The notes below the pieces were generated by a model. It saw only the letters and a list, made by a program, of their open reading frames with translations. It was not told where the DNA came from and did no database searches. A program made the translations under genes and the position numbers. Shown here in pieces: positions 46,304-64,000 of a stretch of DNA of 64,000 nt. The first letter of the stretch is position 1. Each line of letters starts with the position of its first letter. The stretch covers positions 157,790,001-157,854,000 of the forward strand of contig CM097882.1 of the NCBI GenBank assembly GCA_044892505.1, written 5' to 3'. The stretch is from Schmidtea nova. Taxonomy: Eukaryota.

Positions 46304-47902
46304 CAAGGGTGTCAAACTTATAGGCTTACATGGGCCAAACAAACAAGGTTTAAAGTTAGGTGGGCCGTAAAAAAATCAATATTCATAGAAACGTAGATTT
46401 ATCTTGAATAATACATTATAATAAACATATGCAAAAAAACAAGAGAAATGTAATATTTACGTCCTGAAACTTGACATCTCTTCTCTGCTTCTATTTTTCC
46501 AATTTCGGGATAAACTTTATTCGCAGTTGTTGAGGATACCTAAAATACAAAATAATATAAAAATAATAAAATTACCTGGGAAAAATCATCATGACGAAGG
46601 AGACGGTCAATGGAAACACAGAAAAGAAAACGGAAATAAAAAGAAATGAGAAATGAGAAAGAGGAATCAGACAAAAGAAATCAGAAAAAAGAAATCAGAC
46701 AAAAGAAATCAGACATGAAAACAAAAACATAGGTCGGCACTAATTAATTAGTACAAAAGGAAAAGGAATTTCAAATTGGGAAAAACAAAAATAACAATAA
46801 TGAATTTATCTCGACAGCTTGTCAGAGATAACGAAAACGAAAAGAAAACACGCCGGAGCGGCAAAAAGGAAAAAAAATTAGCCCGAGTGCCGAGCTGTTA
46901 AAGACAGCATGGGAGTTCTAAAGAATATGGAAAATATGAGATGCAGAAATGGAAAAAAAGAAAAGAAGCGAGTTGTCCCGAGTGCCGAATTTTCAAGGGC
47001 AATGTGGGAGTCGTAGAGAGAAAATGGGAAATGCCAAAGACGGGAGTGGCAAAGGCGAAAAAGCCATAAGTGAAGGACGATGGTGAACTATAAAAGGCGA
47101 AAGCAATCGGAACAAAATCAGAAGTAAAATCGGAGAAGTAAAATTGAAGAAGCAAAGTGGAAATGAAATTAGCGAAGAAAATAGAGAATTCGAGTTGTAA
47201 TTGAGACGAAAAGTGAGTGCGTAAAATTAGAAAACTATAAAAGATTTAAATTGTATTTTGGAGAACCAAGATCGAAACAATTTAATTGATTGAATAAAAA
47301 GAGTCAGAGCGGTTAACAACGAATAAAGTCAGAGTGCGGAAACAATCGAAATCAATTACCAATATTAAATCCAATCAGTGGTTAGACGTTGTTGTTTTCT
47401 AGACATTATACAATTGAGCTATTCTTCACGAAGTGTCATAATAAGCGTGTATAATTGTCGAAAGAGGTGTTGAAATGAGCGTGATATTTTGAATCATGTA
47501 AATCATTGTAATAGTCAAATAAAGTTTGTGTTATTGAAAGTGTTGTTGGGGTCAATGAAAAGCATCTTTAGAGTAAGATATTTGATTGGCAACGTTTACC
47601 ATTTCACCAACAACTCCAGAACCCAACACAGTGATGACAGTCAGTAGCCTAACTTTTGACATATTTTAGATAATATTTATGCTTAAATACCGTATTTACT
47701 TAATTGTGGTATATTCAAAATAAATGTACGCATTTTGTTTAATAATTGCAAAAAATAAAGTATAAATAATAAATGTTTAGCGAATTCTATCTATATAATT
47801 TTTTTCTGCGTCGGTTTGTTATTTTATTATATATTATTGTGTGCCGATAATATGGCCGGGACCAAAATGGTTCATTGCAGGCCGTGAGTTTGACCTCCCC
47901 TG
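46304..47902. mobile_element. hAT (Charlie-like) MITE split by a solo LTR
   Basis: TIR CAAGGGTGTCAAACT / AGTTTGACCTCCCCTG with GGGCC subterminal motifs; TSD not matched. Confidence 0.55.
46528..47628 (+). mobile_element. solo LTR, 1101 bp
   Basis: TGTTGAGG...CCCAACA with perfect TSD CAGT; close relative of 14812-15914. Confidence 0.9.
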
Positions 47903-48594: not shown

Positions 48595-49179
48595 CTAAGC
48601 GAATTCCAGACTGATCTCCTGAATCAACTCCGCTTCGGTTAAGGAGTTCAAGTGGTGGATTTGTTCGTCCAGGCGCTTTGCAAATTCTCGGCGACGACGA
48701 CGCTGTCGCGATCCCATTCGGTGTTTTCGAAGCTGTTGGTTTATGACCGGTGCTGACGCTATTGTTCTCGGGGGATCACTGAGAAAAATAGACAAGTCTT
48801 CCGTTGCGAGAGTGGGGGCCATGATGATTTCCTCTTCCGTCCCGCAAGCGACATCTTGGTGAGTGCATTGTATCCAGCGCTGAGCCGTGATCGGCCGGAT
48901 TAGCGCTCGTAATTCGGAGTCGATGTAACTTCTTGTTACTGCATTTAGGCAGTTTCGGAGTTCCCGCTGGACGGCATCTAGTTCCAATTTGGTTGCGGCC
49001 AGTGCTTCCTGCATCCGCTCAAGTTTTTTCGACTGGTCCTTCATTTGTTCGGGTGAGAACCACTTCGCTCTCAATTCATCATTGGCGACCGTGAGTCGCT
49101 TGATCTGTCGCTGCTGGTCCCTCAACTTCCTTTCTTGGATTTGTCCCATGATTTTCTTAGAATTTTCTGAAGTCGGCAT
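48595..49179 (-). CDS. LTR-borne ORF2 (intact, MPTSENS...)
   Basis: First ATG at 49179, 5 nt after acceptor ATATTCAG; WFSPEQMK, LRNCLNAVT, LIRPITAQRW, KHRMGSRQRRRRREF. Confidence 0.82.
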   Translation of the reverse strand: MPTSENSKKIMGQIQERKLRDQQRQIKRLTVANDELRAKWFSPEQMKDQSKKLERMQEALAATKLELDAVQRELRNCLNAVTRSYIDSELRALIRPITAQRWIQCTHQDVACGTEEEIIMAPTLATEDLSIFLSDPPRTIASAPVINQQLRKHRMGSRQRRRRREFAKRLDEQIHHLNSLTEAELIQEISLEFA

Positions 49180-49505
49180 GTTGTCTGAATATGATAACGA
49201 TAAATTCGCTGGAGGACCTATCACCAATGTTATTTTATTTAAACAACTATTTATTATTATTAAACGAGTTACATACTAATGTTTTTAATTATTGAGTTCT
49301 TTGCAAAATTATTTAACTACCTAATTATTGAAGGCTCAAAAAATTTATTGAACTAATTTGAGATTATTAAATGAAATTCCTAATGACTATAACAACTACA
49401 ATACTAAATATTAATAAATCTACATTACAACACTATTAACAAAATGAACATTTCAGATTTCTTTAAAACATTTATTTAATTTAGAACAGGTGGCCATTGA
49501 TGTAA

Positions 49506-49982
49506 CTAGTTATCTTCGGTCATTTTTCCTCGATACGAAAATATCGATCTGATTTGCAAATTTGTATGGATTCCTGTGCTATTGGACGAGGCCTGCTGAA
49601 AACGGGTTCTCTCCGCTTCTCGAAGGGGTCGTATGGCTGTATTGAACTTGAACCCCAATTCCTTGAAGGTAGAGGCTGGAATGAACCCCCAATAAATGAC
49701 ACATTTCGGGAATCCTCCCTTATCCAACATCAGAACGAACCAGGCGGCGTGCCATGATTCGAATTCCTCGTCTGGAATGATTGGCCAACTAGCGCATCCC
49801 CGGTACCATACGTGATGCCGTGGATGGTCCCATACCGTAAATGGACAGGCGATTTCGAGCTCTCGGCGCCATGCCCACATTTTTTGATGGATTTGCTGTA
49901 AAATCTCGAAAGGTGCCGGCTTTAATGGGCTAACTCGGGCTCGTTCTTGTCGTTTTTTGATAGTGTATCTATGCTTAGTCAT
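49506..49982 (-). CDS. LTR-borne ORF1 (158 aa)
   Basis: WYRGCASWP...WFVLMLDKGGFPKCVI resembles the copy A/B ORF1 core; acceptor AAATTCAG ~15 nt before ATG. Confidence 0.62.
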   Translation of the reverse strand: MTKHRYTIKKRQERARVSPLKPAPFEILQQIHQKMWAWRRELEIACPFTVWDHPRHHVWYRGCASWPIIPDEEFESWHAAWFVLMLDKGGFPKCVIYWGFIPASTFKELGFKFNTAIRPLREAERTRFQQASSNSTGIHTNLQIRSIFSYRGKMTEDN

Positions 49983-50876
49983 GATTCCAAAACGATGCTG
50001 AATTTTATAATAGTTACAATTTACATCAATAATTAATCATAGTAAATGTTATCTCTCATCGTGATACCCTTATTATTTGCCTTCCCCTTAGACCTTAGCT
50101 GAAATCAAGGAAAACTGTCGTTCGTTACGGTATGCATTACTCTCGTATCTACTTAGCTTTATCTGTTTACGATCAATATTATAGTTGAAAAATGGTGATT
50201 TGTCTGCTTGGATTTTTAAAATATTGATACCTCAACACGGAAGCTCTCTCCCGTCATGTATCCCTAGCTTATTCGAAAAACGCTCTTTTGTACCAAATGC
50301 GGTCGACAAAATTTTCTGAGGTTTATTAGACGTTTATCTAGCAACAATTCGTGCCTCCCCACGGTTAAAGAATTCTTTCATATCTTTAAGCTTTATCAAA
50401 AATTTATCGTCCCCTCCGTAGCCAAAACGATCAGAAAATAATTCCCCGGATTTGTTGGGTGTCCCATGTGCAAATCTCATCCATCACTAACAAAATTATG
50501 TTTTGTTATTTATTACTTTACCGTGTGTGGAGCCCTCGAGCACCACGCCACGGACGGACACCTTGGGAACCTAAAGCTCCCAACGGCGCAAGATTAATAT
50601 GATAGTTTAAATAGTTTAAATATAACATAAATCATGAGATAACTAATAAATTATAATATGATAATGACATACGAATACAACGATATCATAAACGTAAATA
50701 TACCAAAAATACCTCAATTGAATTCTGAAAATTTATTGATCAAAATCGGTCTAAACGGTGATCGTCGTCGGGGCAATGTGCAATCTAATGTGAATTTTTA
50801 GTTAAAGTCTAAATTTCAGTCTAACAAAGTCTACTGAAGTCTCACTCTAGTCAAAACGTCTCTTTTTATGAAAAAT

Positions 50877-51491: not shown

Positions 51492-51713
51492 TTACACAAG
51501 CTCTTTGATTTCATGATTGGTATTGGATTGGATTGGGGTTCTTTCGCTGATTGTTCGTAGTTCGTAGTGGCTTTGGATTCGGTTTAGGTGTTTTCTCATT
51601 CGCTTTTGGGTTCTGCTGTCTTGTATTGTTGTTCGATTCAGGATGACTTGTTTTTGTTTTAGGATCTTCACTCGGTATGATGCTATGAGGATTGTGATCG
51701 CGATAATGGTCAC
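51492..51713 (-). CDS. possible small accessory ORF (hydrophobic N-terminus)
   Basis: Last ORF of the A-rich array; overlapping alternative frame 51511-51750; no clear acceptor. Confidence 0.35.
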   Translation of the reverse strand: MTIIAITILIASYRVKILKQKQVILNRTTIQDSRTQKRMRKHLNRIQSHYELRTISERTPIQSNTNHEIKELV

Positions 51714-51787
51714 GCTGAGTGCAAGGATTATTATAATTGCGATGATCCATTTTTCTTGATATTCTATTTCTGCTTGGGCTAAGCTTT

Positions 51788-52063
51788 TTATGGGTTCTCG
51801 ACCTTCTTTTGGGTTTTTCTGATTGTTTTCAATTTGATTCGATGTTCATATAGGACCTGTTGAAATTTTTCATCGTTTGGGTTGTCTGATGTTATCTGTT
51901 GAAGTTGGGTGATTTCTTGTGTTGCTTCGCTGATTAGTTTATCTAGTTCTTGATAGGTTTTCTCGGGTAGGGCTCGTAGCTCCTTCTCTGTGAGTTGAAG
52001 ATCTTCTCTTTGTAGGGTGATTGTTATTAGGTATATGAATATCGGTATTCCGAGCTTCTTCAT
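51788..52063 (-). CDS. small accessory ORF, hydrophobic N-terminus plus coiled coil (91 aa)
   Basis: Same codon style as neighbours, LGIPIFIYLITITL segment, tandem position in the array. Confidence 0.55.
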   Translation of the reverse strand: MKKLGIPIFIYLITITLQREDLQLTEKELRALPEKTYQELDKLISEATQEITQLQQITSDNPNDEKFQQVLYEHRIKLKTIRKTQKKVENP

Positions 52064-52145
52064 ACTGTTTTCTTTACAGATAGGTCAATACAATTTGACA
52101 CTACATTTCATACAATTATTTACAAAAATATATTTTCCGCTTTAT

Positions 52146-53207
52146 TTACACAATCGTCTCGTTTGGTTCGTAGAAACCTTCGTCCTGAGGCTCTACCTGA
52201 TTCGTGGGGAGTGGTATCCATACAACCCTGCTCCTCCACATTTCGACTTCATCTCGATACATGTGAGATATCTGGATTTCCTCGTCCAGCAAATATTCTA
52301 GGTAATTTGCTTGTTCTGTTAATGTTTCTATTTGCTTCTCTAATTCGATTACTTTTGTCTTTTGTTCGTCTTCCTTCATCATTTTTGTTACGGCTGCCGT
52401 TATACTTGCTTCTTTGGGTATTACTGATACTGTTACTCGTTTCTGTTTCAATTCTTCGTTTTCTTTCATCAAATTCGTTAAATTTTCCTCATAACTTTGT
52501 TTCTCTTCCTTTAACCTTTCTCTGGTTCTTTTTAGCTCTATTTTCTTCTGGGTAATCACTCCTTGATAACCATTTATATCTCTCTTCATCTCTTCTTCTT
52601 TCTGATTCCATATTCCGGTGAGCATAATTTTCAGTTGTTCTTGATTAGCAAGTTCTTCTCCCATTCTTTGAACTTGATAGGTTAGTCCTTTAATTTTCTT
52701 TGCTTGTTCCCGGATAAATTGCTGTCTCTTTGTATTCCATCTTTTATTCAACACTTCTTGGTGTATTTTCTGTTCTAACTCGTCTTTTAATTCGTCGATC
52801 TCTTTATATAATTTCCAGTCATCACTATAAGCTGTCCTTTCTATTATTTCTCTAGCTTTTTCGTAAGATTCTTTCGCTTCTTTCTTCCAGTATCTTGCTT
52901 GTTCTGTAATCGAATACATCTTGTGTTCAGCTTCCATCTGCTGTCTGTCTCTTTCCTCTCGTCGCTCTTTCATCATTCTCTGGTAATATTCCTTTTGTTG
53001 TTGTAGCACTTTGTATACTTCTTCTATTTTTTCTCGACTTCTTTGACTTGATCTTTCCGCTTCTTTTAATAATTCGGCTTGTCTCTCTATCTCCTCTTGT
53101 TTCCCATAATATGCATTGACCCATATTTCAATCTGTTCTCGATGATCGCTAATCGCTTCGGCTTGATGTATCGTAATTTCTTGTAAGCATACTTCGATAT
53201 TTCCCAT
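52146..53207 (-). CDS. accessory coiled-coil protein (353 aa)
   Basis: Long E/K/Q/R-rich helical ORF; T-tract acceptor TTTTTTTTTTGAAATTATAG 2 nt before ATG. Confidence 0.8.
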   Translation of the reverse strand: MGNIEVCLQEITIHQAEAISDHREQIEIWVNAYYGKQEEIERQAELLKEAERSSQRSREKIEEVYKVLQQQKEYYQRMMKERREERDRQQMEAEHKMYSITEQARYWKKEAKESYEKAREIIERTAYSDDWKLYKEIDELKDELEQKIHQEVLNKRWNTKRQQFIREQAKKIKGLTYQVQRMGEELANQEQLKIMLTGIWNQKEEEMKRDINGYQGVITQKKIELKRTRERLKEEKQSYEENLTNLMKENEELKQKRVTVSVIPKEASITAAVTKMMKEDEQKTKVIELEKQIETLTEQANYLEYLLDEEIQISHMYRDEVEMWRSRVVWIPLPTNQVEPQDEGFYEPNETIV

Positions 53208-53324
53208 TGCTATAATTTCAAAAAAAAAATTTTTTTAATCGGTTTATATATCAGTTATTTTTTGTTTATATAATAATTTTTGGGTATTTAACTGTACACA
53301 TTATTTACATGATCACTTCTCTTG

Positions 53325-54707
53325 TTACGTCAACCATCCTTTTCTATCCGCTTTCTCATTCCTTTCCATTTCTATGTATAGGGTGTCTGCATATAATCGT
53401 TCCCATAAGCTTTCTTTCGTTATAAACATCGGTTCTCCCGCTGCTAATCCACATTCTGTGGTTGGTTTCTCGCTCGTACTCGCATGTTTCTCTGTCTCAA
53501 AGAATTTTTCCACCGGTTTTGCTACACTTCTGATTCTTATAATGACTCCTACTTTCAAGGGCCATTCTACTAGGTCGTCGTATTCTCCTTTACATAGCGA
53601 GAAAAATATTGACACATGTGTTCCTCGTCCTCTTCCGTCTCCATTTGGGTATAGCTTCAATCTCATTTTAGCTCCGTTTCTCCATAAATAAAATGGTGGG
53701 CTTATTACTGCTGTTTTCGTCATATTTCTGGCCTCTGTTAATTTGTCTCTAAAATCTGTCACTTTCCACACATATGGTGCGATTGGTAACTTTTCCTCGG
53801 TATCCTGGGTGAGTTTGTTGTACTGGATTTTCATTCCTTTAGCCAGTTCTTCGATAGCTTTTATCTTTTCCTCCATCTTTTCTCGTGTTAGTTCGAATTG
53901 CTCTCTGGTTTCCAACAGTAGGTTTACCATTATCTTGTGTGACTCTATTTCTCTTTCTAATTTTTTGATTGTTTGTTCGGTTTCTTTTGTTGCTTCGTTT
54001 GTCATTTCCGCATGCTTTAGCAATGCTTCCTCCAGATGTTGTTTCATGGTTTTTTGCGTTCTTTTCTCCATACATCCCTGTTTGTTATAAGGACATTCCC
54101 TTGGTTTCTCCGTGCACACTTTCCAATGTTCTTGTAATTTTACTTCTACCGTTATCTCGCATTCGTTTGAACATATTCCTACATATTGTCTACATACTTT
54201 CTCCTCTTTTACATTCAGGTGTTCTTCTTCGATCTTTCTCCTCGTTTCTCGAGTTCCACAATATTCGCATAGACTTTCCTCTTCTTTACATTCATCTTTG
54301 TGCTGCTCTTTATTCTTTATAGTTATTTTTTGTTGGCATTTGTTACATTCAGTTCTCTTCTCTTCGCAGTTCTCCAGATGGTTCTCGAGATCGCGTATTT
54401 GTCCTTGCCATATACATGGTTGATTTATACATTCGGTTTTCGTGTTCATGATTTCTCTCTGAGTTTCTCTATCTGGTCCGGTTTCTTCGAATTTTATTTG
54501 TCCTTCTTTGCATTCTGGACATTCTGGTGGTCTTTTCATACTTAACTCGTGTATGCATTTGGTACATACTCTGCATCCGCATAGGGTTTGTCTTGGTTTC
54601 AATATTATGTTTTTACAATTTACACAAGTGAGTCTCTGACTCCATTTCCTGTTCTCGGCTCTCAAAATTTCGATTATCCGCTCTTCGGCTTTTCCTTCTG
54701 TATTCAT
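53325..54707 (-). CDS. TRAF: TRAF-family protein (RING, TRAF zinc fingers, coiled coil, MATH), intronless
   Basis: CVNC...CGCRVCTKC...CPEC RING; CxxxC/HxxxC zinc fingers; MATH motifs VWKVTDF, SPPFY, LYPNGDGRGRGTHVSIFF, EYDDLVEWP; acceptor CATTGTAG 1 nt before ATG. Confidence 0.92.
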   Translation of the reverse strand: MNTEGKAEERIIEILRAENRKWSQRLTCVNCKNIILKPRQTLCGCRVCTKCIHELSMKRPPECPECKEGQIKFEETGPDRETQREIMNTKTECINQPCIWQGQIRDLENHLENCEEKRTECNKCQQKITIKNKEQHKDECKEEESLCEYCGTRETRRKIEEEHLNVKEEKVCRQYVGICSNECEITVEVKLQEHWKVCTEKPRECPYNKQGCMEKRTQKTMKQHLEEALLKHAEMTNEATKETEQTIKKLEREIESHKIMVNLLLETREQFELTREKMEEKIKAIEELAKGMKIQYNKLTQDTEEKLPIAPYVWKVTDFRDKLTEARNMTKTAVISPPFYLWRNGAKMRLKLYPNGDGRGRGTHVSIFFSLCKGEYDDLVEWPLKVGVIIRIRSVAKPVEKFFETEKHASTSEKPTTECGLAAGEPMFITKESLWERLYADTLYIEMERNEKADRKGWLT

Positions 54708-54797
54708 TCTACAATGATATATACACTTGATTTGTTATCTATTTTTTGATTTTTCTTGTTTTTGTTTTACATATTTACAATTTTTCGCTTTATTTAT

Positions 54798-55154
54798 CTA
54801 CGGCTCGTTTGTTGAATCTGGTTCTGGGTCATTTTCTGATCTGTTTATTGCCCAATTTGTCCATCCATCCTCTGCTTCTTCTGTCTCTCCCATTGTTAAA
54901 CGGTCTATCTCTATTGCTTGTCTCTGATTTATGTCGCTCATCACTTGATTCTCTCTGGTGAGTTGCGTTATCAATCTCTGTTGCTCCTCGATTCTGTGGA
55001 GTTGTTCAAAACTATTATTATAACTTTCGGATAACAAATTCTGTTTCTCAATTAACTGATTTTGTAGTGAGTTGATTGTTCGTATTAACATGTCACACTG
55101 GGCTTTCCATCGCATAGCCATAGTAGTTTCTGCTATTTCTTCCTGTTCGTTCAT
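54798..55154 (-). CDS. small accessory coiled-coil protein (118 aa)
   Basis: Heptad-like Q/E/L pattern; acceptor TTAATGTATATAATTTAG 3 nt before ATG. Confidence 0.7.
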   Translation of the reverse strand: MNEQEEIAETTMAMRWKAQCDMLIRTINSLQNQLIEKQNLLSESYNNSFEQLHRIEEQQRLITQLTRENQVMSDINQRQAIEIDRLTMGETEEAEDGWTNWAINRSENDPEPDSTNEP

Positions 55155-55279
55155 TTTCTAAATTATATACATTAATCGTTTTCTCGATTTCTCTTTTTAT
55201 ATTTTTATAATATCGATACCCATACTATTACGGTAATGCATTGTTATTTACACTATTATTTACAGTCATATCCCGCCTC

Positions 55280-58200
55280 CTATATCACCATCACTGTCTT
55301 TCCTTCGTATCGCTCTTCATCTTCTATTTGTCTCCAAAATTCTTTACCTTTCGTCCTCCTTTGGAATTCTTTATGTACTTCTTCCGGTAATTCTATACTG
55401 TAGTTCATGATCTTTATATCTGGCCAATGTGTTATTGGTTTCTTGTTGAATACATCATATATCCATATTATTAATAATACTGTTATTACTGGAATAGTTG
55501 CTGCTAGTATTCCTAGACCAATTAGTTCTCTAACTTGTTTGTTTACGTCCATCTTCGTAATTTCACTCTGGTTAATCATTGGTCCGTATTGTCCCTTTAG
55601 TTTATTTAGTAGTTGTTCTCGTTCTTGTTGTTTTCTTTTAACTTCTTTAATTACTTCTTCCGGCGTCCATCTTGCGTAAGGGTCTATTACTACTTGTTCC
55701 GCGTCCATTTGTTTCGTTGTCTGACTTAATTCTTTAAATTCGAGTTTTCTCACTTTCCCTTTGGACGTTGAGTTTACCGGTGTGTAGTACGTTTCGCATC
55801 TTTCCTGCTGATTTCCCAGTATGTCCGTCTTTTCTATCGCACATATCTCGTATTCGCTATTGAATTTCAGATTTCTGATACTTATTTCCTCTTTTCCTTT
55901 CGCGTTTCCACAGTCTCGTGGCTGTCTTTCCCTTTGTTTCTGAACTATTACCCAACATATTTCTAACGTTTTATTGTCTATTCTCCATAGTATAAGAGTT
56001 GCTGTAGTATTCTTTTCGGTTTTTATTTGTATATCTTGGTTTTTCTGTTGTCCATTAGGTTTAAAGGTAGTGGTATACCTCGCTTTTCCTTTGTTCCGTT
56101 GTCTTCTACTTTTTCGCGTTGTCTTTCCAGCTCTTGTTCTGGTGGGTGTTTTATATAATCTGCATTCCAATTCATTTACTGTTATTTTGTCGCTTTTCCT
56201 GATCAGGCATATTTCGTACGTTTGATTGCTTTCTAATCCTTCTATCTGTATTGTGGTTGTTCCTCTGTTTGTTCGACATTGCGGCGGTGTATTCTGGTTT
56301 GTTTTCCTTTCCTGCTTCTTCCAGCATACGCCTTTGACGTCCGGTTCTATCCCGGTTAACTCTAACATTATAGTTGTTCTCCGTTTGGTGCGTTTATTTC
56401 TTCTTCCTCGTCGTATGAACTTTATTGTTTCCCCAGGTTGAAATGTTTTACAAATTGTCGTTCCTTTCTTGTGTCTTTCTTTTTCTAGTAAACATAGTTC
56501 ATACGTCCTGTCTGCTTTTACTTCTGATATTTTGGTTACTTTATTTGTTTTCCTTTTCCGACTCGTCTTTATTTCGCTTACGCCAATTTCTTCGTTGCTT
56601 CTGGCCCAACACTTTGGGTTGGTGTTTTGGGTGTCGTTCATCTCTGTTACTGCCATTGTGTCAATGTCTATCCCTTCTTCTAACCGTTTTAACATTGTTA
56701 ATATGAGTGCTAAACATAGTAATTCTGTTTGGTAGGTCACTCTTTCGGTCTCGTTTGTGGTTACTCTTGCTTCGGGCCTGTCTATGGTAATTTGTATAGT
56801 TGGCGTTGTTCGTCTGTCTATTGTCTGAGGTTTCTTGTTTTTTGTTCCTTGTGTCTCTGTTCTTCCACACTTTCCTACAACATAGTCTCCTTTGGATGAC
56901 TGCTGTATTGTTATGGTTACTTTGGGCGTTAGGTAGTTTGCACATGCTATTGTGTTGTGTGATCTTGGATTCTTTTGTTTTCTGATGGTGCATATTTTGT
57001 ACCAAGTATCTAGCTCTAAGTCATCGATCTCTATGATTCCTTGTTCATATTCTGAGATCCTGCAATCCATTGGACTATTTTGTCCCGATATTTTGTCCTT
57101 TTTTGACCAACATACTCGTTCGATTCCTTTTGCGTTTCCAATTTGTATTGTCGCTCTTTCTTCACATATCATTCCTTGAGTTGGACTAATTAAGGTCATG
57201 ATTACCGTTAGTAATAATAGTTCTGGTTTAAAGAATGGGTTTATTGTTTGTTTGTAGCCTGTTCTTTTTGCTTCGTTTTTATTTTTATAGTTGTTGTTTC
57301 TTTGTTTCCCAAATTCATTTTTCTTATCATTTTTCTCTGTGTCCCTTCCTTTCTCTTCACTGTCCTCTTCATCTGATAACTCATGATCCTCTGGATTTTC
57401 TCGAGTACTATCGTCGTCGTTTCCTGTATTGTCGCCTCCCCTTTGGTCGTTGAAAATGTCGTCCTCGACATTAATTGCTTCTATCATTTTTTCATACGTT
57501 ATGGTTGTGAGTATACTTGCTTCATATTCTTGTGTTACTGCCTGCTTAGGTATTTCCTTATCGGTTAATTTACAATCTAGAATCTCTTTCTTGGCTTTTA
57601 TCCAATTATTAAGGTACGTTTTCATTAGTTCTTTCCATTTGTCCGTACGTTCTGTTTCCTTTGGGTTGTTTGTGAATCGTAAATCTTTTCTTCTCATGAA
57701 GATATCTATTATCTTTGGCCATTTGTTTATTATTAATGCACACTTTATATACAAATTTTGGCCTTGTTCCATGCATTCGTTGATCCTGAATGCTGGTTCA
57801 TTGGTGTTTGGGTTCATCCAATTGAGTATTGCTTCAGTTAGTTCAGCGTTATGCATCATGGAATGTACGCTAGCTTTTTTAACTGTCCTTGTAAGGTATT
57901 CTATTTCCTCCTGATTTGTGATTGTTTTTATGAAATTTATCACCTCCCAATTGTGCGCTAACAACGCTACGTCTAGTATTGAGCTGTCTTTGTTAGTTCT
58001 TCCCATGAGTCCTGCACCTGCTTCGTACAGTTCCTGTAACACTCGGGTTTTTGTGTTCGCTCTTGCTGCGAATATCATGAGGGTATCTCCCTTTTTATCT
58101 TTCATGTTCATGTCACTTCCGCAATCTTGCATCAACCGTGCAATTTCGACTACCCTCCTATCTTTTCCTGCTCGTAAGGCTCTATGTATTGGCAATACTC

Positions 58201-61200
58201 CATTCTTTGTTAATAAGAAAGTCACTGGCATTTCTCTTTTTATGATCATCATATCGTTTTCATTGTAAGTTCCTTCCGCATATGCGTGTACCTTTTCCAC
58301 AATTGCTCCGAGTATCTCCAGTGTATGTTTAGAATTTTCGAATTCTGGTAATAGTTCTTTTGCTTTGTCCTGTATCGCATCTAACCTTTCTTGATATGGT
58401 ACTTCTGCGCTGAAAAGTGGTGTAAATTTCCTTTTGCTTTCTCTTTCCTTTCGACATAGGAATTGTTTGCATTTTTCGGGGTGGTTTAATATGTCTATTA
58501 GTTTGTCATACTCTTCTTCCACCGTTTTGTATTTATCTTGAAAATTGGATATATCTTTGTAAGTTATCGTCTTGGTTAGCGATTTTGCACACCATTCCCT
58601 AATTTTCCTGAATAATGCTTCTTTTTCACTTTCGAATTTACACTCCTCTTTGTTTTTGGAAATTGTAATATTTCTTCTGTCCAATAATATTAACAGTGTT
58701 TTCTGATCACAAACTAATTTTAATAGGAATTGTAATAACGCGTTTTGTCCTTTACTGTATACTTCGTTTATATTTAATACCCATGTATCATTTTCGGATC
58801 TTTTCCATTTTATTAGCTTGCGTATTGTTTTGCAGTTACCGATTTTTATTGCCTCCTTGATTATATCACCTTTGATCAGTTCGTCTATTTCCCAAGTGGC
58901 CTTCTCGATTATTCGTTTGAGCATTATCTGATTTGAGCTCCATATTGCGTGATTCAAGACTGTTTTGTTTTCTCTATCGCGCTCCGTCCAGTTGAAATCG
59001 GCATTTATCAAAAGGTCTATTATTGCCTTATCCGATTTGTAGATGGCTGCTACCATTAATGGTGTTTCTTGTTCGCTATTCCCAAAACCAAGGTGTTGGT
59101 TGGTTTCCTTTGCGATTTTTAGAAGTTCTTTTACCCTCTCTACTTCTCCCCATTTTATGGCGTTATGTAATGCTGGTTGTCCTCCTATGTCTTCTAGTGA
59201 AAGTATTTCTGGAATTTTCTCCAGTAGTTCTGAAATGACTGGTTTTGTTGGTAGTCCCCTTGCGTAATCACTAATTATAGACTGTATATCTCTTAATATA
59301 TCGTCTCTGACATGCCATTTTCCCATTATTTCTCTGGCTTTTAGTACAATTTCCTTGTTTCTTTTTCCTTGTTGATTGTTTTCTGCTTCGGTACTTTCAT
59401 TGGTTGCTCTGAGCATATTCATTCTGGCTGTCTGGGATCTAGTTATTATTCGTTCTTCTGGCGTTGTGGTTATTGTCTTTGGTACTTCTTTACATCTGCA
59501 TGTATTAACGTATATTGGTCGTATCAATGGTCGATTAACAAGTTTTACCTTCACATTGTTTTCCTTTTTGTATATGACTTCGTAAGGGCCTTTTCCTGGT
59601 CTTTGTAGTTTTTTAACGGTTCCTGGTATTATTTCTGGGGTTTCTATCATTACCCAATCTCCCGGCTTAAGATCATTTGTTTTAACATTTTTCTTTTGAT
59701 CGTGTAGGTCCTTGTAACTTTCCTGGTAAAACTTTATGTTTAGCTCTGCTGTCTTCCATATCTCTTGCATTCGTTCTTTGAATTTGGTGACGTAATCATC
59801 TTCCTCCATATATTGAGACAAAGGTGGTTGATATTCAAGATCTATTGGCATATTGCATTCCCTTCCATACATTAATTGAAACGGACTCAATTTTGTTGCT
59901 GCGTGTATCGACATTCGGTATGCCATTAGACATAGCTTTATGTACTCATCCCAATCTGTTTGGTGTTTGCTTACATAATTGGATAACATTCGAATCAATG
60001 TGCCGTTAAATCTTTCCGTTTGTCCATTGGTTTGCGGATGATATGGTGACGTTCGTAATTTGGCTATCCGGAAGTAATTTGTTACTTCATCTAATATTTC
60101 GCTCATGAAATTTGTTCCTTGATCTGTTAGTATTTGTTTCGGGGTTCCGTATCGACAACATATTTCCTCTACTAAAATTCTTGCTACCGTCTTTGCTTTT
60201 TGATCCGGCATCGCAAATGCCTCAGGGAATTTCGTCAAATAATCCGTTATTACCAATATATATTGATTCACATTTAAACTTTCTGGCAATGGTCCTATTA
60301 CATCCATCGCAATGGTAGTCATTGGTTCCGCTGGTATTGGCATGGGTTTTAAGGGATTTTTCCATTTCTTCCCACTATCCTTTCTTGTGGCACAAGTTAA
60401 ACAGTTCTTTATCCATTCCTTTACGTCCTCGTCCATTGTTGGCCAATAATATTTTTGTCTCATACGATCTAATGTTTTCTTATCGGACATGTGTCCTCCC
60501 AACTTTCCGTCGTGGTATTGAGTTATTATCTCTTTTCGTCTATTACCTGGCAGACACATTAATCGTTTTTCTCCATCCTGTATTAATAACCATCCTTTTT
60601 CTATTGTGTATCGATGTTGGTATTTCCTCATGTGTTCTTTTAACTCCGCATTGTCTTTGAATACATCCATATTCCGTGAGCTTAGGAATTCTATGATGGG
60701 TCTTAGTTCTTTATCCTCTTGCTGATCTTTCTTTAACTCGCTGAAATCCAAATCTTCTGCTATCATTATGCATATTCTTTGCACTTCTGGGTCTGTTAAT
60801 TCTGGAAACGTTAATCTTGACATGCAATCTGCGTTGGCATTCGCTTTTCCTGATTTGAATTTTATATCTGGTGAATATTCTTGTAATTGCATCGCCCATC
60901 TCATCAACCTGCTGGATGTTTCCTTATGTTGTCCTAGCCATACCAGTGGTTGATGATCCGTGGTTATGCATATAATGTGTCCCCATAATAGATATTTAAA
61001 GTGTTTTATTGCTAATATTATTGCCAATGCTTCTCTTTCCGTTACTGAATAATTCTTCTCGTGTTTCTTGAATGTTCTGCTATAATATCCGATTACCCGC
61101 TCTTTTCCCTCGTCATCATATTGTCCTAACACTGCTCCTGCTGCATATCCACTTGCGTCGGTTGCGAGTAAAAATGGCTTTTTGAAGTCCGGGTGAACCA

Positions 61201-63997
61201 ATATTGGTGCAGTTATTAGCTTATCTCTCAATGTTTCAAAGGCTGTTTGTTGTTCGCTTCCCCATATGAACGATACGTCTTTCTTTACTAGCTCCTGGAT
61301 TGGTTTTGCAATTCCTGCGTAATCCTTTATGAATTTTCTATAGTAACCGCATAATCCGAGAAATTCTTGGATCTGCGTTATCGTCTTTGGTACTGGACAT
61401 TCTTTTACTTTATCAATGTTTCTGGGATCTGGTTCCTTTCCTTTTGCGGACACAATATGTCCTAAGAATGTCACTTTCTCCTTTGCCCAATCGCATTTCG
61501 ATGGTTTGAGCTTGAGTTTCCATTGTCTCAGTCTAACAAATACATCTCTGATATCTTGGATGTGTTGTTCAAATGTGCTTGAGTAGATCAGTAGGTCATC
61601 AATGTAAACCATGCATTGTTTTATGCCGTGGGTAACGAAATTCATACATCTTTGAAATGATGCTGGCGCATTGGTTAGTCCAAATGGCATTTTCCTAAAC
61701 TGGTACAAGTCTCTTCCGATAGTGAAAGCAGTTTTCTCTTTGTCTTCCTCCTTCATTTTAATTTGCCAGTATCCGCTTTTCAAATCCAATGATGTAAAAT
61801 ATGCCGCTCCTTGTAATGTCAATAACATCTCGTTGATGTCTGGTAATGGGTATGTATCCCTTTTTGTAACTGCATTTAATCTCCGATAATCAATACAAAA
61901 TCGTTGTGTTCCGTCTTTCTTTTTCACCATTACAACTGGGAATTGCCACGGTGAGCAGCTTGGTTCAATTACTTCTGCGTCTAGCATTTTCTGTACTTCT
62001 GCTTCGGCTACTGATTTTTGCGCTTCAGCTAACTTGTATGGTCTTAACGCAATAGGCGTTTCGTCTGTTAGTGGAATCGTATGTAGTGTGACGTCGCATG
62101 TCCCTAGATCTAAATCGGATGCTGCGAATATGTCTTTATATTCTATCAGTAATTTTTCTAGCTGTTTCTTTTGATCCTCATTCAATAGTTGGCTATCAAT
62201 GTTCCAAGTGGGTTCTTCCTCTTTTACTCCTTCTTTTATTGGTATTTCGATATCTATCATTGGAGTTAGTTTACCTAATCTTTCATTTTCATAAATTATT
62301 TTATCCTCTTCATCGAAATTTACTACATTTATTGGGATTTCTCCGTTGTCATTCGCACTCACTAATCCCCTTGCCATTGGCAACGACTTTCTCTTTTCAA
62401 ATCTTTTACTGGGTTCAAAGATCATGTCACCTTCTATTGTAGGATCTATTTTTACGAAACATATTTTCTCTCTCCGTGCTGGTACGATTATTTGTTTCGA
62501 ACTTGTTACTTTTGCTTCTATTGCGCATATCTGTCCTGTCCTATCCTTTAATCTCATTGTTCCGAGGTCAATAACTATTTCTTTAAATAATGCTGGCATC
62601 AGATCCGTGCCTATAATGCATGGTACGCTTAGTGCTGGTATTACTGCTACGTACGTTTCGATTTCCGTGTTTTGATGTTTTATCTTTACCCACCATCTTC
62701 CGGCAACTTCTACTACTTCTTTACTGCATGCTATTACGTGAACGTTGGTTCTCTCAATATCCCGTCTTTGTTCTTGTGGTATCCATTTTATATCTATTGC
62801 TGAGATATTTGCTCCTGTATCAATCATCGCTTCAATTTCCCTTCCGTTAATTTCGATTGTTGTAGTTAATACTGGACCGGTGTTTGATGACATTACTGCA
62901 ATTGTATGTGAGTCTCCTTGCGGATCTACGCTTCTGCACCGTCTCGTTCTATAGTCTTCTGGTATCATAGGATATATGTTTGTCATCGGCATCATTTGCA
63001 TTGTATTTTGTCTCATCCCTGGTGTTGGTTCTTGGTACATGGTTGGTGGGGGTGCGTAACACTTCCACATTTCCGCTGGATTCTTTTCGACATACTGTGG
63101 TACTTGATTTTTAAATACTTGACCTCCTTCGTTATCATCATCATCGTCGTCACTGGAATCGTCTTGGGTTCTGTACCCTTTCATTCTTTCCCATAGTCCT
63201 TTTCTCTCTTTCTTTAGTTGTTGTCTTGCTTGTTCGTTATTCATTATCTTTTTAAATTTTCGTCCCACCTCTTCATCGGTTCCTTTCATTTTTGCCAGTA
63301 TTTTTAGGAGTCTCTTTATTCGGTGAATATCTTTTGAATGACCGTGTAATACCATTGTTTTAGCCAAAAATGGTAAGAATCCTACCACCAATTTCCAATT
63401 TACTTTCTTTTCTCTTTTATAGATGTCAAAACAGGCTAACATTTGCGTTATTATTACCCGTATTATTTGTATAATTAGTATAACACCAAGTATTCCTGCC
63501 ATCATTTGTCCAAATATTAAAAATCTTCCCCACATCGCTTTCATCATGTTTTCCGTTGCCTTCTTAAAGTGGGCTGGTGACAATAATAATTCATAATTTG
63601 GTCCACCTTGGTAATTTGTTCCTCCTGTTATTGTTACAATGCTGGATAACACCGCTTCCCTTCTTGCTGGAAATAGTATGTTTTGTCTCGCTGCCTCTAA
63701 GTCTTTTGCGCTATAGAATCCCATATTGCTTACATCTACGTCTTTAAATTTTCGTCCTTTTGATAGTTGCATCAATTCAAATTCCCTTGGTGCTGGTACC
63801 TCTGTTCTTGACGGAAACATAACCCAATTCCCGTCTGGTTTTTGGTATAATGGTCCATATGCGTTGCTGCAATTGAAAGGGTTTGGTTCGAAGCTTACTG
63901 GATTTATGATTCTTGTCACTGGTTGCACATATCTTACTTTCCCTTTGTATTCGATTTCTAGTTCGTTAGTACACTGACCTGGTTGTAATTTGGTCAT
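55280..63997 (-). CDS. pol: giant polyprotein (>2905 aa, 5'-truncated by window): glycoprotein-TM, protease, RT, RNase H, integrase, ankyrin repeats, signal peptide, 4 FN3-like repeats, TM
   Basis: DTG 62813-62821; YIDD 61595-61606; DAS 61151-61159; HHCC ~60390-60514; DVIGP/TDQG/GQTERFN core; GPY ~59585; ankyrin LH/PL motifs 57930-59190; no stops; frame open to the window edge. Confidence 0.95.
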   Translation of the reverse strand: MTKLQPGQCTNELEIEYKGKVRYVQPVTRIINPVSFEPNPFNCSNAYGPLYQKPDGNWVMFPSRTEVPAPREFELMQLSKGRKFKDVDVSNMGFYSAKDLEAARQNILFPARREAVLSSIVTITGGTNYQGGPNYELLLSPAHFKKATENMMKAMWGRFLIFGQMMAGILGVILIIQIIRVIITQMLACFDIYKREKKVNWKLVVGFLPFLAKTMVLHGHSKDIHRIKRLLKILAKMKGTDEEVGRKFKKIMNNEQARQQLKKERKGLWERMKGYRTQDDSSDDDDDDNEGGQVFKNQVPQYVEKNPAEMWKCYAPPPTMYQEPTPGMRQNTMQMMPMTNIYPMIPEDYRTRRCRSVDPQGDSHTIAVMSSNTGPVLTTTIEINGREIEAMIDTGANISAIDIKWIPQEQRRDIERTNVHVIACSKEVVEVAGRWWVKIKHQNTEIETYVAVIPALSVPCIIGTDLMPALFKEIVIDLGTMRLKDRTGQICAIEAKVTSSKQIIVPARREKICFVKIDPTIEGDMIFEPSKRFEKRKSLPMARGLVSANDNGEIPINVVNFDEEDKIIYENERLGKLTPMIDIEIPIKEGVKEEEPTWNIDSQLLNEDQKKQLEKLLIEYKDIFAASDLDLGTCDVTLHTIPLTDETPIALRPYKLAEAQKSVAEAEVQKMLDAEVIEPSCSPWQFPVVMVKKKDGTQRFCIDYRRLNAVTKRDTYPLPDINEMLLTLQGAAYFTSLDLKSGYWQIKMKEEDKEKTAFTIGRDLYQFRKMPFGLTNAPASFQRCMNFVTHGIKQCMVYIDDLLIYSSTFEQHIQDIRDVFVRLRQWKLKLKPSKCDWAKEKVTFLGHIVSAKGKEPDPRNIDKVKECPVPKTITQIQEFLGLCGYYRKFIKDYAGIAKPIQELVKKDVSFIWGSEQQTAFETLRDKLITAPILVHPDFKKPFLLATDASGYAAGAVLGQYDDEGKERVIGYYSRTFKKHEKNYSVTEREALAIILAIKHFKYLLWGHIICITTDHQPLVWLGQHKETSSRLMRWAMQLQEYSPDIKFKSGKANANADCMSRLTFPELTDPEVQRICIMIAEDLDFSELKKDQQEDKELRPIIEFLSSRNMDVFKDNAELKEHMRKYQHRYTIEKGWLLIQDGEKRLMCLPGNRRKEIITQYHDGKLGGHMSDKKTLDRMRQKYYWPTMDEDVKEWIKNCLTCATRKDSGKKWKNPLKPMPIPAEPMTTIAMDVIGPLPESLNVNQYILVITDYLTKFPEAFAMPDQKAKTVARILVEEICCRYGTPKQILTDQGTNFMSEILDEVTNYFRIAKLRTSPYHPQTNGQTERFNGTLIRMLSNYVSKHQTDWDEYIKLCLMAYRMSIHAATKLSPFQLMYGRECNMPIDLEYQPPLSQYMEEDDYVTKFKERMQEIWKTAELNIKFYQESYKDLHDQKKNVKTNDLKPGDWVMIETPEIIPGTVKKLQRPGKGPYEVIYKKENNVKVKLVNRPLIRPIYVNTCRCKEVPKTITTTPEERIITRSQTARMNMLRATNESTEAENNQQGKRNKEIVLKAREIMGKWHVRDDILRDIQSIISDYARGLPTKPVISELLEKIPEILSLEDIGGQPALHNAIKWGEVERVKELLKIAKETNQHLGFGNSEQETPLMVAAIYKSDKAIIDLLINADFNWTERDRENKTVLNHAIWSSNQIMLKRIIEKATWEIDELIKGDIIKEAIKIGNCKTIRKLIKWKRSENDTWVLNINEVYSKGQNALLQFLLKLVCDQKTLLILLDRRNITISKNKEECKFESEKEALFRKIREWCAKSLTKTITYKDISNFQDKYKTVEEEYDKLIDILNHPEKCKQFLCRKERESKRKFTPLFSAEVPYQERLDAIQDKAKELLPEFENSKHTLEILGAIVEKVHAYAEGTYNENDMMIIKREMPVTFLLTKNGVLPIHRALRAGKDRRVVEIARLMQDCGSDMNMKDKKGDTLMIFAARANTKTRVLQELYEAGAGLMGRTNKDSSILDVALLAHNWEVINFIKTITNQEEIEYLTRTVKKASVHSMMHNAELTEAILNWMNPNTNEPAFRINECMEQGQNLYIKCALIINKWPKIIDIFMRRKDLRFTNNPKETERTDKWKELMKTYLNNWIKAKKEILDCKLTDKEIPKQAVTQEYEASILTTITYEKMIEAINVEDDIFNDQRGGDNTGNDDDSTRENPEDHELSDEEDSEEKGRDTEKNDKKNEFGKQRNNNYKNKNEAKRTGYKQTINPFFKPELLLLTVIMTLISPTQGMICEERATIQIGNAKGIERVCWSKKDKISGQNSPMDCRISEYEQGIIEIDDLELDTWYKICTIRKQKNPRSHNTIACANYLTPKVTITIQQSSKGDYVVGKCGRTETQGTKNKKPQTIDRRTTPTIQITIDRPEARVTTNETERVTYQTELLCLALILTMLKRLEEGIDIDTMAVTEMNDTQNTNPKCWARSNEEIGVSEIKTSRKRKTNKVTKISEVKADRTYELCLLEKERHKKGTTICKTFQPGETIKFIRRGRRNKRTKRRTTIMLELTGIEPDVKGVCWKKQERKTNQNTPPQCRTNRGTTTIQIEGLESNQTYEICLIRKSDKITVNELECRLYKTPTRTRAGKTTRKSRRQRNKGKARYTTTFKPNGQQKNQDIQIKTEKNTTATLILWRIDNKTLEICWVIVQKQRERQPRDCGNAKGKEEISIRNLKFNSEYEICAIEKTDILGNQQERCETYYTPVNSTSKGKVRKLEFKELSQTTKQMDAEQVVIDPYARWTPEEVIKEVKRKQQEREQLLNKLKGQYGPMINQSEITKMDVNKQVRELIGLGILAATIPVITVLLIIWIYDVFNKKPITHWPDIKIMNYSIELPEEVHKEFQRRTKGKEFWRQIEDEERYEGKTVMVI

Positions 63998-64000
63998 TGT

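Follow-up and report, generated by a model that had tools for sequence, protein, structure and literature searches.

Planarian genomes carry giant Ty3/gypsy retroelements of the Burro/GYPSM1 type, with a polyprotein of about 5,000 residues that includes Gag, CCHC, ankyrin and MATH/TRAF domains and an in-frame Env between gag and pol, together with multi-kilobase long terminal repeats (LTRs) (PMC6431247; this and the other publications are cited for the passages covered). Related elements show tissue-specific expression under PIWI control (PMC8532177; further context in PMC13238120), and for most Env-bearing Ty3/gypsy elements outside insects the transmission mechanism has been called elusive (PMC13524379). 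We analyzed a 64,000-nucleotide stretch of the Schmidtea nova genome (contig CM097882.1, positions 157,790,001 to 157,854,000), here called the window and numbered from its first letter. Its minus strand carries a recently inserted Burro-type Ty3/gypsy element encoding a Gag–Env–PR–RT–IN–ankyrin polyprotein (PR, protease; RT, reverse transcriptase; IN, integrase). This type of element is already known, and the membrane module with FN3-like repeats that ends its polyprotein, after the integrase, is apparently undescribed. The literature searched, which included the covered passages of PMC6431247 and PMC13524379 and had the original Burro paper outside its scope, yielded no post-integrase FN3 membrane protein. 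Annotations that stop at the integrase miss the module.

The post-integrase module and its copies

The module is the 3' end of a minus-strand open frame at 55280-64000, which has no stop within it and extends past the window to 5,140 codons. An internal signal-like segment (H1), four Cys-containing repeats (R1 to R4), a transmembrane (TM) helix and a tail follow one another in that single frame. The features are listed below in coding order; ratios of nonsynonymous to synonymous substitution (dN/dS) were taken against four copies of a sister family that are not independent of each other, and confidence in structural models is given as the predicted local distance difference test (pLDDT).

57239..57448, minus strand: acidic/basic linker preceding H1; least constrained part, dN/dS 0.24-0.43
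57173..57223, minus strand: H1, internal signal-like segment; hydrophobic core of 11-12 residues ending T-Q-G, cleavage-type site; dN/dS 0.06-0.15
56918..57172, minus strand: R1, FN3-like repeat by homology tests, in the recombining segment; predicted beta domain in model 2, pLDDT ~73
56726..56917, minus strand: Thr/Lys-rich linker; one Cys, co-occurring with the N-terminal Cys of R1; pLDDT <50 in model 2
56672..56725, minus strand: H2, second short hydrophobic helix; C-x-A-L-I-[LI] then KR/RR; 11-residue core; predicted helix at residues 147-165 of model 2
56417..56671, minus strand: R2, FN3-like repeat; most diverged of the four, lacking the second Cys
56132..56389, minus strand: R3, FN3-like repeat; modelled and fold-searched
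55763..56020, minus strand: R4, FN3-like repeat by homology tests and pattern comparison
55526..55762, minus strand: membrane-proximal stalk; dN/dS 0.05-0.13
55457..55525, minus strand: transmembrane helix by hydrophobicity and insertion score
55280..55456, minus strand: tail of 58 residues and stop codon (55280-55282), from the open frame

An earlier note, made from the letters of the sequence alone, had described H1 at 57173-57223, the four Cys repeats, the TM helix and the short tail, and all of these were found in the minus-strand frame, the TM helix one base away from where the note had put it (55458-55526). It had also described the module as fused after the integrase through a linker. 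The module does lie downstream of the integrase in the same frame, but the two do not adjoin: the end of the integrase is near 59405, and H1 comes about 730 residues later, after the ankyrin region and an acidic linker. The predicted mature protein would start with MICEER at 57172, directly after H1.

The four repeats are homologous to one another. Five of the six pairwise scores lay above those of all 1,000 shuffles, the exception being R2 with R4, whose score was reached by 44 of 1,000, and leave-one-out hidden Markov models (HMMs) recovered every repeat (E values of 4e-13, 5e-6, 8e-16 and 2e-9). The Cys pattern that the earlier note had drawn up fits R3 and R4 best; R2, which begins K-C-W, and R1, which has Y-K-I-C, deviate from it. 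An FN3-like fold had been proposed there as well, with a structural model and fold search as the check, and that check, made on one repeat, supports it: the AlphaFold model of R3 (pLDDT 81) matched FN3 domains in 50 of the 50 matches listed, with middling Z scores of 6.7-8.0. For R3 and R1, then, an FN3 fold is predicted by modelling. None of 30 repeats scanned rose above the curated cut-off for Pfam fn3 or related models, the best E values being 0.067-0.098 (Fn3_Dep-1_1st, Fn3_ELFN and fn3), and no homologue of the module was found in the public protein libraries searched. We regard it as quite unlikely that the repeats are a generic beta-sandwich not derived from a host FN3 domain.

The module is under purifying selection. 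A search with R3-R4 gave, among the 150 matches listed, at least 86 with identity of at least 87% and at least 23 with the same 5,140-codon frame (counted by eye), and the frame was open across the module in all 20 of the best DNA matches. The dN/dS was 0.17-0.19 for the module and 0.14-0.18 for H2. Identity to the sister family was 85-87% in H1-R1 and 70-79% in most other segments, with 82-84% in the adjacent linker and 82-83% in the tail; H1-R1 was also farther than the other repeats from three further copies (L029, L030 and L035). Four-taxon site patterns stood at 208:18 in the flanks and switched to 8:33 across H1-R1-linker (p 8e-22, for an interval chosen post hoc), and two further quartets agreed. 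By these patterns, R1 is exchanged through recombination. Within the window's family, the ratio of nonsynonymous to synonymous polymorphism (pN/pS) of R1 was 0.25, so that exchange is seen without signs of positive selection.

We compared the same position in related families, all from one genome, the distant Env-bearing lineages being represented by six fetched stretches (L095-L097 and L132-L134). A signal–ectodomain–TM module followed the integrase in six of these six. The sister family (L025:1683-3300; L026-L028, L032, L033 and L036), with frames of about 5,650-5,690 codons, has two tandem modules with seven repeats in total; the second, which is 31% identical to the first, comprises a signal, three repeats, H2 and a TM helix. 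Since the sister-like copy L031 has a single module, the sister family probably acquired its second one from a divergent relative. L132-L134, which bear BCL2 and are 39% identical across PR-IN, encode after the integrase a signal, one FN3-like repeat, a stalk, a TM helix and a basic tail (L132:6101-6898, L134:6093-6740). That repeat has the signature L-x-P-x-T-x-Y-x-[IV]-C...C, and its profile scored 17.9 against A2 and 19.5 against host FN3, where the maxima of 100 shuffles were 16.0 and 13.6, over 20 columns only. In L095-L097, with an integrase 51% identical, a signal, a 320-residue ectodomain and a TM helix come directly after the integrase (L095:1264-2454, L096:1343-2536); homology of this ectodomain to the FN3-like repeats was not detectable. 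It is beta-rich, in frames of 3,401 and 3,393 codons, and a downstream open reading frame (ORF) in these families has DEDD-exonuclease-like motifs by eye and no Pfam match.

A high-copy derivative, L098 (2784-9674), has no Env, RT or IN in the stretch that was fetched; it encodes a signal and one repeat with no TM helix. Its gene order is ubiquitin-like, protease, ankyrin, signal and repeat, followed by TRAF and IAP ORFs. The repeat matched the A2 HMM (E 1.8e-8; hhalign 88%), was stop-free in 149 of the 150 matches listed and had a pN/pS of 0.31 over 32 copies. No autonomous parent of L098 was found.

Topology and possible function

In 35 of the 36 copies fetched, H1 ends in (T/S/G)-Q-G, in keeping with the rule of small residues at -3 and -1; in the remaining one it ends in Q-E. 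The cores of H1 and of the Env signal are equally short. H2 was kept in 36 of 36 fetched copies and in seven second modules. On an additive membrane-insertion scale, the scores were +2.5 for H1, +8 for H2 and about -1.5 to -1.9 for the TM helix, which suggests that H2 is a poor membrane span. The Cys count is even in all three modules counted. Neither the N-terminal Cys of R1 nor the linker Cys occurs in the second modules or in L035, while L030 gave no clear reading; the even counts and the co-occurrence favor a single luminal ectodomain. Sequons are not enriched in the module (7 versus 4.9 expected), and furin-type sites are not conserved. The earlier note had read the module as a type-I protein, for which the conserved signal-type site and the true TM helix both speak, but it had overlooked H2 between R1 and R2. 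The module has one strong TM helix and the conserved short H2. A simple type-I topology is likely from these sequence features, and signal-peptidase processing with surface location, taken without any function, is probable.

A different topology would follow if H2 were itself active at the membrane. It could be a second signal for chains in which H1 is skipped, giving long and short forms, or a stop-transfer segment that leaves R1 alone luminal and R2-R4 cytosolic. H2 stands before R2 at the distance at which H1 stands before R1, likewise ends in Gly, is followed by KR and is retained in modules only 31% identical; it also resembles the start of the TM helix of the distant L095 module, with a score reached by 1 of 2,000 shuffles in a post hoc comparison. 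Its core of 11 residues, the insertion scores of +6 to +11, the acidic residue at -3 in most copies, the paired Cys kept in R2-R4 and the basic residues on the tail side of the C-terminal TM helix all tell against such a role. We consider it unlikely, and it would fit either of the functions weighed below.

Our best reading, which we hold at even odds, is that the module is a second envelope-side protein of the element, a type-I FN3 glycoprotein that signal peptidase sets free and that serves attachment or targeting together with the gB-type fusogen. The TM helix of Env would return the chain to the cytosol, where PR-RT-IN-ankyrin would be made; H1 would re-open translocation, and signal peptidase would cut after T-Q-G. 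Four disulfide-bonded FN3 domains would then enter the lumen of the endoplasmic reticulum, H2 would cross with them and form a short helix of the ectodomain, and the C-terminal TM helix would anchor the glycoprotein. The viral protease may separately free the integrase at the N-M-L-R site. The product could serve attachment or cell targeting of particles or vesicles that carry the gB-type fusogen, and R1, the outermost repeat, would then be its variable binding end; this function is the weak step of the proposal.

The close rival keeps the same processing and makes the product act on the host: as a decoy, whether at the surface or secreted, as an adhesion mimic or as an interference factor, within the element's TRAF/IAP/BCL2/ankyrin signalling toolkit. 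In favor of this rival is L098, which lacks Env, RT and IN and retains under selection a signal and a single TM-less repeat adjoining TRAF and IAP ORFs, so that a role independent of the fusogen is conceivable. FN3 domains of cytokine receptors (gp130, IFNAR1/2 and GHR) are also among the fold matches of R3. However, an element that is not autonomous depends on the proteins of a helper, and its secreted repeat might therefore still work on particles; the anchored form occurs in all six distant Env-bearing stretches, and the fold matches favor neither cytokine receptors nor adhesion proteins. A host-acting product is, on balance, less likely than not. That the module is a captured passenger without function is extremely unlikely, and the selection data already refute it for the most part: in L099, a subfamily of the derivative, the repeat is deleted, but the dN/dS of about 0.18, the 20 open copies and the filled slot in every sampled Env-bearing lineage all argue against it.

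The carrier element

The remaining features of the element are as follows.

63419..64000, minus strand: C-terminal part and TM helix of Env, gB/Monjiviricetes type (PF24664, E 1.5e-28); the frame runs on beyond the window (Gag, Env signal)
59978..62863, minus strand: protease, RT, RNase H and integrase (Pfam RVP, RVT_1, RT_RNaseH, Integrase_H2C2, rve)
59405..59425, minus strand: N-M-L-R motif at the end of the integrase, a likely viral-protease site; resembles three Gag-region motifs
57971..59182, minus strand: ankyrin-repeat region between integrase and module (Pfam Ank_2, E 4e-16); downstream end set by eye
54798..55157, minus strand: accessory ORF of 119 codons, retained in the sister family; coiled-coil-like by eye
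53325..54734, minus strand: accessory TRAF-like ORF (zf-TRAF, MATH), with a RING-like Cys pattern by eye
52146..53234, minus strand: accessory ORF of 362 codons, coiled-coil-like by eye, no Pfam match
51492..52084, minus strand: two small overlapping ORFs, each with a hydrophobic segment
48037..51288, minus strand: 3' LTR of 3.25 kb; identity to the 5' LTR, which lies outside the window, is 99.8%

The Pfam order PR-RT-RNase H-IN is that of Ty3/gypsy, CCHC knuckles (zf-CCHC) lie upstream in the frame, and the giant single ORF, the Env in frame between gag and pol and the ankyrin and MATH/TRAF cargo are those of Burro. The insertion is recent, because the LTRs are 99.8% identical, with TG...CA ends, a 4-base target-site duplication and a primer-binding-site-like sequence, presumably of the tRNA-Pro type. 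BIR and BCL2 gave no Pfam match in the scanned ORFs of this element and were found in related families.

Several side observations concern the element. Three I-N-M-[ML]-R motifs in the Gag region (L021, same frame) match the post-integrase motif and are candidate protease sites, the pattern having been chosen post hoc. The five inter-ORF spacers (minus strand; 55279-55150, 54797-54706, 53341-53207, 52145-52062 and 51491-51290) hold seven TGTA[ACT]ATA motifs in 643 nucleotides, against a mean of 0.23 in 2,000 base shuffles, none of which reached 7, and one in the 8.7-kb ORF; the motif matches the Pumilio element. A YAG stands 1-3 nucleotides upstream of each of four accessory ATGs, as in splice or trans-splice acceptors. 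Two ORFs inside the LTR (226 and 176 codons; 48595-49275 and 49506-50036) recur in the 5' LTR and have no significant Pfam match. Across 52001-64000 the coding strand is 40-46% A, which inflates K, E, T, I, N and R and calls for caution in reading basic linkers as functional. Outside the element, the window holds two copies of another repeat (46528-47628 and 14812-15914), with 78-86% identity.

Comparison with known systems

LRR-FN3 receptors (ELFN, LRFN, LRRN and FLRT; LRR, leucine-rich repeat) have Y-x-x-C on strand F and a Cys on strand G of an FN3 domain next to the TM helix. The earlier note had likened the module to these receptors, and the shared strand F/G Cys pattern near the TM helix and the weak, sub-threshold Fn3_ELFN matches in 3 of 30 repeats hint at such a likeness. 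The module differs in having up to four repeats, an extra C-W/Cys pair and no match reaching cut-off; no LRR precedes the FN3 repeats in the frame translation and Pfam scan of the element, and a search for an ELFN-type gene or FN3 donor in the host found none.

Three further systems offer partial parallels. The LTR-element ORF3s of rotifers are captured post-pol cargo that includes small TM ORFs and DEDD exonucleases, but they are separate ORFs, and the abstract does not mention FN3 (PMC5408684). The planarian nidovirus PSCNV encodes a giant single polyprotein with ankyrins, predicted sites for signal peptidase and fibronectin-named modules for which a part in host interaction has been proposed; it is an RNA virus whose FN2 modules have an unrelated fold, and the parallel is one of analogy (PMC6211748). 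Drosophila Sas, an FN3-repeat type-I protein with a short tail, targets Gag-derived capsid vesicles to cells, and here too the parallel would be one of analogy; Sas is a host gene with VWFC domains (10.1101/2022.09.06.506798).

The closest systems are retroelements. The Gag-Env-Pol errantiviruses with HSV/gB Env share ORF order and Env class with the present element, and the Env fragment of Smed_errantivirus_1 is alike by eye; 'fibronectin' and 'ankyrin' have no occurrences in the main text, and the passages covered name no second membrane protein (PMC13524379). Burro/GYPSM1, compared by description only, shares the single giant polyprotein, the Env position, ankyrin with MATH/TRAF and multi-kilobase LTRs, and has relatives with BIR and BCL2 in this genome. 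Unlike in Burro, TRAF is a separate downstream ORF here; in the passages covered, the named domains of Burro account for half of the ORF, with no signal peptide, FN3 or post-ankyrin membrane protein among them (PMC6431247). For target-cell choice by Env-bearing Ty3/gypsy elements outside insects, a conserved, selected and recombining post-Pol surface protein is a concrete candidate, or else one for host manipulation. We tentatively suggest that a second surface FN3 attachment protein, cut from the polyprotein end, may be an ancestral trait of Gag-Env-Pol gypsy elements with a gB fusogen, the number of its repeats (1 to 7) and its outer domain being shuffled between lineages and its secreted form a decoy in non-autonomous parasites, in a division between attachment and fusion like that of herpesviruses and paramyxoviruses.
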